64,000 nucleotides of DNA from Roseomonas sp. (GTDB lineage: Bacteria; Pseudomonadota; Alphaproteobacteria; Acetobacterales; Acetobacteraceae). The DNA lies in assembly GCA_044345845.1 (NCBI GenBank), contig JBIJAH010000007.1, forward strand, positions 40,414 through 104,413. Direction: 5' to 3'. The notes under the pieces were generated by a model. It saw only the letters and a program-made list of their open reading frames with translations. It made no database searches and was not told the origin of the DNA. Numbering within the stretch: position 1 is the stretch's first letter; every line of letters begins with the position of its first letter. Shown piece after piece: positions 12,380 to 15,355 of this stretch. The translations under genes and the position numbers were made by a program.

Positions 12380-15355
12380 TCACGGCACCGAAAGCGCGCC
12401 GGTATCGCGCCAGTAACCCGCTTCGCTGCGTTCGGTTTGCAGGCGCAGGCGCACAATGCCGCGATGTTGTGGATCGCCCTCGGCATCAAGGATTTCGTCT
12501 ATGGTGAAATCCTCCCGCAATTCCTCCGCATCCGCGCTTTCAGGGTCTATTTCCGCGCGCTGGATGGAAAGCTTCAGCGGCAGTTTCAGCCGCGCCACGT
12601 TATCGGGATTGGCATATTCCAGAATATATAACCGGCTCGCAGTCCAGCGTTCCAAATCCAATTGGCGAAAGCCAAGAAAGACCGGGGCGCGGAATTCCAT
12701 GCTGAATTTCACATCCTGCGACGCACCGGGCGCTTTTGATAGCGCCGCATCCGGGTCCCGCAGCAGCACATTCTGCCGCAGGATTTGCCCCGAGATTTCC
12801 ATGCGTCCCAGGTATTTGGCGGTAGAGCGCATGGCAAGCCTGCTGGTGCGCATCAGGAAGCTTTCCAACCTTCCTTCTGCCACGGCGCAAAGCATGGCAC
12901 CCACCGCTGCCGTGGTTTTCGGGTCATCTACGCGCCCGGCGGAATCGCGGAAGGGATACCAGCTGCCGGCGCGATAGCGATGCATGCCCACAATGCGATG
13001 CGGTGGCACGGGCATCTTGGCCAGCACCATATTGAAAATAGCCCGCAGCCTGGATGGCCTGCCGGATAACAGCAGCCAATCACAATCAAAGGCATAGACC
13101 ACTTCGCAAAGATCAGCGATCACCTGGCCAAGCGCTGCCTGCACAATCGCATCCACACTGCCCGCCGCAGCCGCCATTTCCGCTTCCAGCAAATGATACC
13201 CGGCAGCACCGGCGCGCGCCGCCTGTTGTTCAAAATAGCGCAAAGGTGCGGCTACATCGCGCCCATGCAGAATGGTGCTGAGTTTTTCGCGCAGGAATTC
13301 ACCGGACGCGCGTTCATCTATCTTTTCGTAGCCATGCAAAATTGCAAGCCCGGTTGGTTCCAGCACTTGAGCCACGAATTGCCGGCGCAAATGCCGTTCC
13401 AATTCGCTTTGCGCGCCGCGATCCCCACCGAGTACTTCGCGGAGCAACGCCTTCGGATCACGCGCACCAGCTTGGCGCAGGCTTTCTTCAAGCTGCGGCA
13501 GGACGATGCTTTGGATCACCTCCTGCAACACCTCATCGCCCGCAATGCGAAAGCCTTCGCGGAAATTCTGGTACGGTTCAATTTCCTGCCCGGCTTCGGC
13601 GGAATAGGTGCAGATCATCAAATCCGTGGTGCCGCCGCCAATATCAATGCTGGCCACGCGGAGTGAAGGCGCCTTGCCATAGCCTTCCCGCGCACGCCCG
13701 GTCAGCGCGAAGAAGCTGGCGGGGTCACCACGCAAGCGCTGGCTTGCTTCCGTATACAGAAATACCAATTGCGTCGCCGTCGCCTCATCAAGGTTGGCGA
13801 TGATGCGCGGCTCTGGCGGTGGTGCCGCGGCGCCGGGCGCGGGATTGCCCCAGCCCATCATATCCCAGGCAAGCCTGACTGCAGCTTCAGCGCGATGGCG
13901 GAAAATACGCTGTTCCGCGAGTGCCATGGCCGGCGGCATGGTCAGCAAAATACGGCGCAGCCGGCGCGGCACATCGGGGAAGCTCCGCGCATAGCGGGTT
14001 TCGACCGAATTGATTTGCGATAGCGCCTGCAACAGAATTTCTGCCAGCAGGAAGCTCATCAGCGATGAACGGCTGAAGCGCGCGCGCACGGCGGGTTGGC
14101 GCGGTGCGCCGCCACGACTGCGCGGCTTGGCGCGCAGCACTTCGCCTTCTTCCGTGACCCAGGCCATGAAACTACCGCTCACAGGTGGTTCCGTGGTCAC
14201 GCCATCGGCGGCCATGCCGTTGAAGCGCCAAACCTGCGTTGTGGCTCTTTCATCCCAAAGATAGCGCTTGGGCGAAGACAAGCCCGTGGCCCCATCATTG
14301 CCGCGCGCCGCGGCAGAAAGCCGCACAGCCTCCGGGCCGATGCGCACCGGGCTCAGCCATTGAAAGGCATTACCGCGCCCGGAACGGCGGCTGAGTGCAT
14401 CCTTGCCGAAACTCGCGCGCGCGAATTCCACACGGCTTTCAAAGGGGAAGGCGTAGCCTTGTTCCGGCGCGCTTAAATCACGCAGCTTCAGGGGGTAGCT
14501 ATTGTTCAGGTTCAGCCGGCTGTCGCGTTCATCTTCCACCAAAATGCCGCAGGTGCGCGCATTGCCGATATCCAGCACCAGATCAACATTGATGGGTTCA
14601 TAGGATTTGCTGTTGGAAACCACATCAACCAGCTTCACGCGCGGCAGGATCCGCGCTTCGGTCAGCAATTCCAGCAGGGTGATGTAGCGCGCCCAATGTT
14701 CGCAGGCACGCTGCTCATCCTCAGGGCGCGGCCGACGGCCAGTCGCGACACGCATTTCCTGCAAGATTTCTTCTAGCCACTGGATCAACCAGGGTTCATT
14801 CATGAACCAACTTGTCTGTTCCCGGTCAGAAACAAAGGTGAACTCACCCGCGCGTTCGCTATCGGTTGGCGAAATCGCGGTATAGGGGCGGCCTTCTTCA
14901 CGCGCCCGCAGTGCCGTATCAAAGCCAAGCACGGCGTGATGCGTATGGCCTTCCTCATCAGGTGCGGATAGCGCTGTGATGCGCAGCCGCGCCCAATTGG
15001 TCGGCCCCTTGTCATAGACTTCCTGGCCCGAGGCCCCCACGGCGGCCACGCGGAAATAGGGCAGCGGTATCCAGCGGCCCAAAATGAATTCCAACGCCTG
15101 GCCGCGCCCCACCTGATAGATTTCCTCATCGGGTGGGCTGCGGCCACTGATTGGGTCCAAAAGTGCGCCATCGCCGTTTTCCGTCAGGCGGCGCAAATTG
15201 ACCAAGCCTGCACTTCCCGGTTCAGCGCCGGGCGGCAGCGGTTGTTCCCAGAAAGAACGCGGCGCGCGCGGTAGCCGGTCCAGGTTGAACCGGATGTCTA
15301 TGAATTGCAGACCGGTCTGCGGCACGATGCTGATGATTTGCGGCAGGCCCTGCAT
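12380..15355 (-). CDS. srfB: SrfB-family protein with actin/Hsp70-fold ATPase motifs
   Basis: 991 aa with SrfB-typical segments (TGLQFID, WIPLPYFR, GPTNWAR, LSSPKRYLWD, DPKTTAAVGAM) plus LDIGNARTCG and IDIGGGTTD. Confidence 0.9.
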   Translation of the reverse strand: MQGLPQIISIVPQTGLQFIDIRFNLDRLPRAPRSFWEQPLPPGAEPGSAGLVNLRRLTENGDGALLDPISGRSPPDEEIYQVGRGQALEFILGRWIPLPYFRVAAVGASGQEVYDKGPTNWARLRITALSAPDEEGHTHHAVLGFDTALRAREEGRPYTAISPTDSERAGEFTFVSDREQTSWFMNEPWLIQWLEEILQEMRVATGRRPRPEDEQRACEHWARYITLLELLTEARILPRVKLVDVVSNSKSYEPINVDLVLDIGNARTCGILVEDERDSRLNLNNSYPLKLRDLSAPEQGYAFPFESRVEFARASFGKDALSRRSGRGNAFQWLSPVRIGPEAVRLSAAARGNDGATGLSSPKRYLWDERATTQVWRFNGMAADGVTTEPPVSGSFMAWVTEEGEVLRAKPRSRGGAPRQPAVRARFSRSSLMSFLLAEILLQALSQINSVETRYARSFPDVPRRLRRILLTMPPAMALAEQRIFRHRAEAAVRLAWDMMGWGNPAPGAAAPPPEPRIIANLDEATATQLVFLYTEASQRLRGDPASFFALTGRAREGYGKAPSLRVASIDIGGGTTDLMICTYSAEAGQEIEPYQNFREGFRIAGDEVLQEVIQSIVLPQLEESLRQAGARDPKALLREVLGGDRGAQSELERHLRRQFVAQVLEPTGLAILHGYEKIDERASGEFLREKLSTILHGRDVAAPLRYFEQQAARAGAAGYHLLEAEMAAAAGSVDAIVQAALGQVIADLCEVVYAFDCDWLLLSGRPSRLRAIFNMVLAKMPVPPHRIVGMHRYRAGSWYPFRDSAGRVDDPKTTAAVGAMLCAVAEGRLESFLMRTSRLAMRSTAKYLGRMEISGQILRQNVLLRDPDAALSKAPGASQDVKFSMEFRAPVFLGFRQLDLERWTASRLYILEYANPDNVARLKLPLKLSIQRAEIDPESADAEELREDFTIDEILDAEGDPQHRGIVRLRLQTERSEAGYWRDTGALSVP

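Follow-up and report, generated by a model that had tools for sequence, protein, structure and literature searches.

SrfB, a protein family named for virulence, is predicted to contain an Hsp70-type nucleotide-binding domain

Our study suggests that SrfB, a large family scattered across bacteria that has carried the name of virulence factor ever since it was discovered in Salmonella and that lacks a mechanism, is probably built around an Hsp70-type ATPase. The srfB gene considered here lies in a stretch of 64,000 nucleotides (contig JBIJAH010000007.1 of assembly GCA_044345845.1, positions 40,414 to 104,413), referred to below as the window; unless another contig is named, positions are those of the window. 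The reading that we favour with good confidence is that this is a typical SrfB protein, whose central ~570 residues would form a diverged Hsp70-type nucleotide-binding domain (NBD) with intact ATP-site residues and enlarged IB and IIB regions, flanked by an N-terminal module and a beta-rich domain, and that the protein would act as a cytoplasmic clamp ATPase together with SrfC and SrfA-N partners. An earlier note on this DNA (the original prediction) had described a protein of ~990 residues without naming its strand; the open reading frame is on the minus strand, begins with ATG and has 991 codons, giving a product of 991 residues. This product scores 949 bits against Pfam PF07520 (gathering cut-off 27.1; E 4.2e-285 in a Pfam scan), with residues 5-988 lying on profile positions 9-991 of 992, and it is the sole copy in a genome of 3.56 Mb. 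In its end-to-end match to PF07520 and in having srfC as the next gene, it is like the SrfB proteins of the srfABC loci of Salmonella enterica (STM1594 region), Xenorhabdus stockiae and Haemophilus parainfluenzae. Clustered at 50% identity, the family numbers 1,446 representatives (E<=1e-3), and the window gene is a typical member of it and no outlier. Since its nearest named homologues are from Acetobacteraceae or other Rhodospirillales (Crenalkalicoccus 80%, Sediminicoccus 70% and Elioraea 59% identity), the host is probably a free-living alphaproteobacterium of the Acetobacteraceae, unlike the enteric and entomopathogenic hosts of the known srfABC loci. In neither SrfB nor SrfC is any hydrophobic stretch sufficiently long to form a membrane helix, and inspection of SrfB by eye revealed no signal peptide, which points to a cytoplasmic protein.

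The evidence that carries the Hsp70 assignment comes from structure prediction. A template-free AlphaFold2 model, made from an alignment of 96 SrfB proteins, has a mean predicted local distance difference test score (pLDDT) of 93.3 and a predicted template-modelling score (pTM) of 0.94, with no segment below a pLDDT of 50. A Foldseek search of this model against 350,542 PDB chains returned 204 matches at E<=1e-3, the best with an E-value of 9e-17 and a probability of 1.00. Names and rankings of PDB matches are taken here from the best 50 of the 204, and all 50 belong to the Hsp70 family: DnaK, BiP/GRP78, Hsc70, mortalin, the Hsp110 protein Sse1 and Ssz1. The nucleotide-binding fold of the Hsp70s (DnaK, HscA/HscC, BiP, Hsc70) is the best structural match of SrfB, and on DnaK entries that consist of this domain only (5obw, 7rax, 5obx and 5oby) the target-normalised template-modelling (TM) score reaches 0.66-0.69. 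A second library, the predicted viral structures of BFVD, gave 23 matches at E<=1e-3, five of them nameless; the named ones are Hsp70s of giant viruses and Hsp70h of closteroviruses, plus one protein of Bacillus phage G, and other ASKHA proteins (Kae1/TsaD) appear only at E>1e-3. The original prediction had proposed that the fold be checked in this way, and the two-lobed ASKHA fold that it expected was obtained. Its wording 'chaperone-like or filament-forming' has to be divided, however. The chaperone-like half agrees with the best 50 PDB matches, all of them Hsp70 or Hsp110 proteins; the filament-forming half finds no counterpart, as neither actin, MreB, ParM nor FtsA occurs among the best 50 of the 204 PDB matches or among the named significant BFVD matches. 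Because these matches belong to the Hsp70 family, with the exception of the phage G protein, and include no filament former, the model clearly favours an Hsp70-like core over an actin- or MreB-like one.

The active-site motifs were examined for their order, their likelihood by chance and their conservation. All seven motifs enumerated by the original prediction were located in the translation, in the order that it had given (Table 1). Three permissive regular expressions, one each for phosphate-1, phosphate-2 and the adenosine motif, were run on 20,000 shuffles of the SrfB protein, where they occurred singly in 129 (0.6%), 6 (0.03%) and 98 (0.5%) shuffles, respectively, and in no case all three in order; their ordered co-occurrence in SrfB is not due to chance. 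In the whole genome (7,754 stop-to-stop frames of 150 residues or more), only SrfB, MreB and DnaK carry the three motifs in order, and FtsA and a Ppx/GppA-like frame carry two of the three. Judged by the alignment of 96 SrfB proteins, which are 31-88% identical to the query, the motif set is a property of the whole SrfB family and not just of the window gene: D262, G264, D523, D571, G573, G765, K813 and G819 are invariant, and T576 (92/96), E524 (90/96) and D578 (89/96) are nearly so. Four residues that are 90-100% conserved, namely D262, E524, D571 and T576, align at the motifs with D8, E171, D194 and T199 of DnaK; for K70, the fifth residue of that catalytic set, forced hhalign alignment gave no counterpart. 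SrfB shares with Hsp70 the DxG of phosphate-1, the DxGGGTxD of phosphate-2, the acidic residue of (N/D)E(P/A)T, the G-x-x-R-(L/M)-P of the adenosine motif and the (N/D)P...A.GA helix, as well as a beta domain that follows the ATPase domain. The last of the seven motifs, DPKTTAAVGA, was recovered by no hhalign alignment, and would correspond to NPDEAVAxGA of Hsp70 by its position, its helix and its conservation.

For the other motifs, hhalign comparisons were made with the genome's own DnaK and MreB and with profiles of 30 DnaK and 25 MreB sequences drawn from 30 genomes of the phylum. The matches are colinear and, despite low probabilities, each falls on the expected pair of motifs. SrfB 255-354 aligns with MreB 6-65, covering phosphate-1 and the VG.EA segment (VRVGPEA of SrfB with AVGDEAK of MreB). 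SrfB 435-615 aligns with MreB 79-194, covering the LTMPPAM strand, phosphate-2 and AGDEV, and the LTMPPAM region itself (468-492) was aligned with MreB 130-154; in all, three colinear motif blocks were aligned with MreB. With DnaK, SrfB 564-584 pairs with 186-206 at phosphate-2, and 725-789 with 291-360 at the adenosine motif, where LLLSGRPSRLP of SrfB faces VILVGGMTRMP of DnaK.

The model also places the parts of SrfB that have no equivalent in a standard Hsp70. The original prediction had foreseen an N-terminal extension of about 250 residues, and the first strand of the core is indeed found at about residue 255. The extension folds in the model as a beta-rich domain (strands at 7-146) followed by a helical bundle (163-234), and six of its residues (W95, P97, P99, P118, W121 and R123) are invariant in the 96 SrfB proteins. 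The large insertions that had likewise been announced appear as enlarged IB and IIB regions, which exceed those of Hsp70 by ~110 and ~70 residues, respectively, the nucleotide-binding domain as a whole being ~190 residues longer than that of DnaK. Forced global and low-threshold hhalign runs, made for mapping these insertions, gave no meaningful alignment. The SSPKRYLWD segment of the IB region is strongly conserved (K363 in 90/96 and Y365 in 96/96 SrfB proteins). K363 had been considered by eye as the equivalent of Lys70 of DnaK, a guess that forced hhalign alignment did not support and that we do not claim.

Beyond the ATPase core, SrfB has a C-terminal domain of ~165 residues which was absent from the original prediction. 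A possible relation of this domain to the beta part of the Hsp70 substrate-binding domain (SBD-beta) was addressed by three kinds of comparison. Folded alone, the domain has a pLDDT of 85.7, and the first three PDB matches of this isolated model, none of them significant, are Sse1 chains (E 0.07-0.09, probability 0.54-0.60, query-normalised TM 0.34), followed in fourth place by the substrate-binding domain of Plasmodium Hsp70-x and in seventh by the DnaK C-terminal fragment 4r5g. When the model of the whole protein was searched, complete Hsp70s outscored isolated nucleotide-binding domains (1e-16 versus 1e-12). Finally, Hsp70s in the ATP state with a docked beta domain (4b9q, 5nro, 7ko2, 4jn4 and 5e84) superpose with a root-mean-square deviation of 11-12 A over ~757 columns, whereas most ADP-state or undocked Hsp70s (5obv, 2v7y, 9bls and 4ani) give 25-29 A, and bovine Hsc70 17 A. 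The contrast between docked and undocked structures implies that the alignment extends to residues beyond the nucleotide-binding domain. Since the docked forms superpose better, the model suggests that the C-terminal domain of SrfB is docked on the ATPase domain in the manner of ATP-bound Hsp70 or of Hsp110. We lean, by a modest degree, towards true homology of this predicted domain with SBD-beta. SrfB ends about 20 residues past the last strand of the beta domain and thus has no helical lid.

Three groups of known proteins help to place this architecture. Compared with Hsp70 itself, SrfB adds the N-terminal module, lacks the alpha-helical lid and a significant match to any Hsp70 sequence model, and has a C-terminal domain that is weakly SBD-like. 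Of the Hsp110/Grp170 proteins, yeast Sse1 (2qxl) has the highest query-normalised TM among the PDB matches listed (0.31-0.32), its constitutively docked beta domain resembles the arrangement in the SrfB model, and it tops the matches of the isolated C-terminal domain, although these are not significant. Sse1 differs from SrfB in being eukaryotic, in having a helical lid and in serving as a nucleotide-exchange factor for Hsp70. Closterovirus Hsp70h and the giant-virus Hsp70s, strong structural matches with E-values from 1e-12 to 3e-15, are precedents for the recruitment of Hsp70 engines into non-chaperone machines; unlike SrfB, they have the normal size of an Hsp70, and their context is unrelated.

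A number of observations weigh against an Hsp70-type SrfB. At the level of sequence searches, the Pfam scan of SrfB at E<=0.1 retrieved the SrfB family alone, with no Hsp70, MreB or actin domain, and a genome-wide search with PF00012 (Hsp70) recovered DnaK and MreB, not SrfB. The only NCBIfam match of this kind, mreB at a sub-threshold E of 0.046 and in a non-corresponding region, carries no meaning, and phmmer against the PDB sequences yielded nothing at E<=10 for SrfB, nor for SrfC. The hhalign probabilities are low (8-47%) and the matches local. Forced global or low-threshold hhalign revealed no SrfB residue that would match the catalytic Lys70 of DnaK, and the isolated C-terminal domain had no PDB match at E<=1e-3 (best E 0.07, query-normalised TM 0.34). 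SrfB has no evident J-domain or GrpE-like partner in the srf operon and is instead paired with the P-loop NTPase SrfC, whose own putative assignment as a GTPase is drawn from motifs. In the literature, SrfABC has been regarded as a toxin complex (PMC6950479). The whole case for an Hsp70-type SrfB is built on prediction.

Some of these comparisons bear on the first of the alternatives, in which SrfB would be an ATPase of the actin/MreB/ParM type that polymerises upon ATP binding into a cytomotive or scaffolding filament instead of acting as a monomeric clamp. MreB, actin, ParM and FtsA belong to the superfamily of SrfB, which shares its fold and motifs with them; hhalign slightly favours MreB (47% over 115 columns) over DnaK (31% over 21 columns), and the sole sub-threshold NCBIfam match is to mreB. 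We nonetheless regard a filament as improbable. These proteins are missing from the structural matches listed, which are nearly all of the Hsp70 family, and the layout of SrfB, a nucleotide-binding domain and then a C-terminal beta domain, is that of Hsp70 and Hsp110. Moreover, the large terminal domains and the enlarged IB and IIB regions would need to spare the filament interfaces, of which there is no evidence in SrfB.

The genomic context of srfB bears on what an Hsp70-like SrfB may do. srfC starts 10 nt past the srfB stop codon, with an ATG at 12369, and it lies directly downstream of srfB in all six SrfB-positive genomes among the 151 sampled from the phylum. The longest srfC frame, from a TTG at 12489, would run 110 nt into the end of srfB. 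A start at the ATG at 12369 is more probable, because the resulting product matches PF10139 from the first profile position. The genes after srfC are on the same strand and tightly spaced or overlapping, and the same seven-gene order, srfC being adjacent there too, is found in a 53%-identical relative (locus L006). As in the srf loci of Haemophilus and Xenorhabdus, a von Willebrand factor A (vWA) protein, a Lol-like ABC ATPase with its permease and an FGE/SUMF1 protein lie downstream; the cassette around the window gene is thus one that has been described already, around srfABC in these two genera (bioRxiv 10.64898/2026.09.18.752743). The window locus differs from classical srfABC by the lack of an adjacent srfA and by the presence, after srfC, of a 337-residue bitopic protein without a family match. 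This protein has an N-terminal domain of ~110 residues, Pro-rich linkers, one membrane helix (160-184) and a C-terminal domain. The stop of its gene overlaps the start of the vWA gene, and a counterpart of 323 residues occupies the same place in L006. Neither SrfB nor SrfC matched any anti-phage defence model of PADLOC-DB 2.0 at E<=0.1, and a promoter and terminator scan around the operon gave nothing above the shuffled expectation.

The missing srfA appears to have its counterpart elsewhere in the genome. In classical srfABC, srfA directly precedes srfB; it was not found at this position in the window, where an M23 peptidase gene and xseA are located. Two tandem genes on another contig (C10) instead encode proteins with an SrfA-N-like domain, one of them fused to a protease; they match the SrfA model NF040486 with E-values of 3e-24 and 4e-13, both below the cut-off. 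SrfA-N matches were found in 6/6 SrfB-positive genomes and in 0/14 SrfB-negative genomes of the same class, and the SrfA-N genes adjoin srfB in all but one of the five other SrfB-positive genomes. Because of this strict co-occurrence with SrfB, the SrfA-N adaptor is part of the system, unlinked in the genome of the window. In L006 (5861-9945), srfB is preceded by genes for a 556-residue trypsin-domain protein and for two unannotated proteins of 406 and 392 residues, which probably represent the C10 genes in a linked arrangement.

These elements can be assembled into a model of SrfB function. ATP would be bound and hydrolysed in the cleft between the two lobes, and the nucleotide state may be relayed to the flanking domains, as in Hsp70, so that SrfB would clamp and release a partner instead of polymerising. 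Linkage and co-occurrence suggest that SrfB is a cytoplasmic partner of the P-loop NTPase SrfC. From the inner side of the membrane, the two may engage the cytoplasmic SrfA-N domains of single-pass proteins; in the genome of the window both of these proteins are encoded on contig C10, and one bears a periplasmic trypsin-like protease. A functional connection could exist between the assembly and other products of the operon, namely the periplasmic vWA protein, the Lol/MacB-like ABC pair and the FGE-domain protein. An AlphaFold3 model of a SrfA-SrfB-SrfC assembly has been reported (bioRxiv 10.64898/2026.09.18.752743). A bolder reading, which we hold to be less likely than not, would see SrfB and SrfC as a cytoplasmic two-NTPase machine not recognised before, an Hsp70-like ATPase and a putative dynamin-like GTPase, rather than as toxin subunits. 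Acting on SrfA-N domains, including that of the protein with the periplasmic trypsin-like protease, such a machine might transmit or answer envelope signals from the vWA protein, the ABC pair and the FGE protein in a new kind of trans-envelope damage response or remodelling, with the C-terminal domain of SrfB as a lid-less descendant of the substrate-binding domain that grips the adaptor.

The second alternative counts SrfB among the subunits of an exported SrfABC toxin directed at eukaryotic cells, its ATPase-like fold being either incidental or active inside the target cell. It draws on Xenorhabdus stockiae, whose SrfABC proteins are reported to be cytotoxic and insecticidal, all three being needed for full activity (PMC6950479). 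For the window protein we hold this to be quite unlikely, given the lack of a membrane helix and of a signal peptide visible by eye, the strong purifying selection on the ATP-site residues across 96 diverse SrfB proteins, the sporadic occurrence of SrfB (6/151 genomes of the phylum), the probably free-living Acetobacteraceae host and the operon partners, which are envelope or periplasmic proteins of a housekeeping type; the label of secreted effector is also disputed by a preprint (bioRxiv 10.64898/2026.09.18.752743). With its active site intact, an Hsp70-type engine argues for a role of SrfB inside the cell that produces it.

Hsp110 and Ssz1 are Hsp70 relatives in which ATP is bound and a cycle driven by hydrolysis is slight or absent. 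Their presence among the structural matches of SrfB and the failure to locate a Lys70 equivalent would suit a pseudo-ATPase, an Hsp70-like scaffold that perhaps binds nucleotide, does not hydrolyse it and serves as a platform between SrfA-N and SrfC, but this is very unlikely given the 90-100% conservation of the catalysis residues E524, T576 and D578 together with D262 and D571.

The recognition of an Hsp70-type engine with an intact active site in SrfB gives a name without a mechanism a testable biochemical hypothesis, ATP turnover and the clamping of partners together with SrfC and SrfA-N. The Hsp70 superfamily would in turn gain a branch of unusual size that lacks the lid and is coupled to a GTPase-like partner. 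The value of the result lies in this concrete mechanism for the SrfB family, and there is nothing unusual in the window copy. In the open-access literature that we searched, no paper ties SrfB to Hsp70, to ASKHA or to ATPase activity or assigns it this fold, yet the assignment is easily obtained with public structure prediction. Part of SrfB may already be annotated in domain databases as an actin-like ATPase domain. The recent work on SrfABC (bioRxiv 10.64898/2026.09.18.752743) mentions neither an ATPase nor an Hsp70 fold, and the Xenorhabdus paper (PMC6950479) mentions neither a domain nor an ATPase.

Table 1. Position of srfB, of the predicted domains and motifs of its product, and of the other genes discussed. 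Residues are those of SrfB; positions are those of the window unless contig C10 is named.
Feature	Residues	Position	Strand	Remarks
srfB		12380..15355	minus	Open reading frame list and translation; stop codon 12380-12382
N-terminal family-specific module	1-250	14606..15355	minus	DSSP on the AlphaFold2 model, mostly pLDDT >90; PF07520 the sole family match
Predicted Hsp70-type (ASKHA) nucleotide-binding domain	255-826	12878..14593	minus	Foldseek against PDB and BFVD; colinear hhalign matches at motifs
Phosphate-1 loop LVLDIGNARTCG	259-270	14546-14581	minus	D262 and G264 invariant; paired by hhalign with MreB DLGTANT
Enlarged lobe-I region at the IB position	276-463	13967..14530	minus	VRVGPEA (R338, G340, E342) and SSPKRYLWD conserved
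LTMPPAM strand	471-477	13925-13945	minus	P474 invariant; counterpart of Hsp70 VITVPAYF and MreB IIVCVPSG
LDEATA	522-527	13775-13792	minus	Counterpart of Hsp70 INEPTAA (catalytic Glu), from a weak hhalign alignment and conservation
Phosphate-2 loop IDIGGGTTD	570-578	13622-13648	minus	Paired by hhalign with DnaK YDLGGGTFD and MreB VDIGGGTTE
AGDEV	605-609	13529-13543	minus	Counterpart of Hsp70 GGEDFD and MreB GGDK; opens the IIB region
Enlarged, mainly helical lobe-IIB region	606-755	13091..13540	minus	Secondary structure of the model, hhalign, conservation
Adenosine motif LLLSGRPS(RL)	761-768	13052-13075	minus	G765 invariant; hhalign to the genome's own DnaK and to the DnaK profile
DPKTTAAVGA	811-820	12896-12925	minus	Starts the last helix of the nucleotide-binding domain (814-825 in the model); K813 and G819 invariant
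C-terminal beta-rich domain	827-991	12383..12877	minus	At the position of Hsp70/Hsp110 SBD-beta in the model
srfC (PF10139)		9739..12369	minus	Pfam E 8e-229; P-loop GPSQQGKS and DFPG motifs
337-residue single-pass membrane protein		8700..9713	minus	No Pfam family
649-residue vWA-domain protein		6754..8703	minus	PF25106, PF00092; N-terminus resembles a signal peptide by eye
LolD/MacB-type ABC ATPase		5993-6745	minus	Same-strand operon neighbour
LolC/FtsX-type permease		4773-5996	minus	Same-strand operon neighbour
FGE-sulfatase-domain protein		3110-4828	minus	Start uncertain
SrfA-N-like domain, one membrane helix, C-terminal domain		contig C10, 213-1499	minus	Locus L004
SrfA-N-like domain, one membrane helix, trypsin-like protease		contig C10, 1503-3341	minus	Locus L005; PF13365 E 1e-22
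HTH_3 regulator		17746-18207	minus	Polyhydroxyalkanoate locus
PhaR		18310-18906	minus	Polyhydroxyalkanoate locus
Alpha/beta-hydrolase PhaC-like gene		19117-20463	plus	Polyhydroxyalkanoate locus

Upstream of srfB, the gene for the M23 peptidase, which is an exported protein (15445-16260, minus strand), ends 89 nt before srfB and is overlapped by 4 nt by xseA, encoding the large subunit of exonuclease VII (16257-17678, minus strand). A polyhydroxyalkanoate locus (17746-20463) adjoins the operon on this side.

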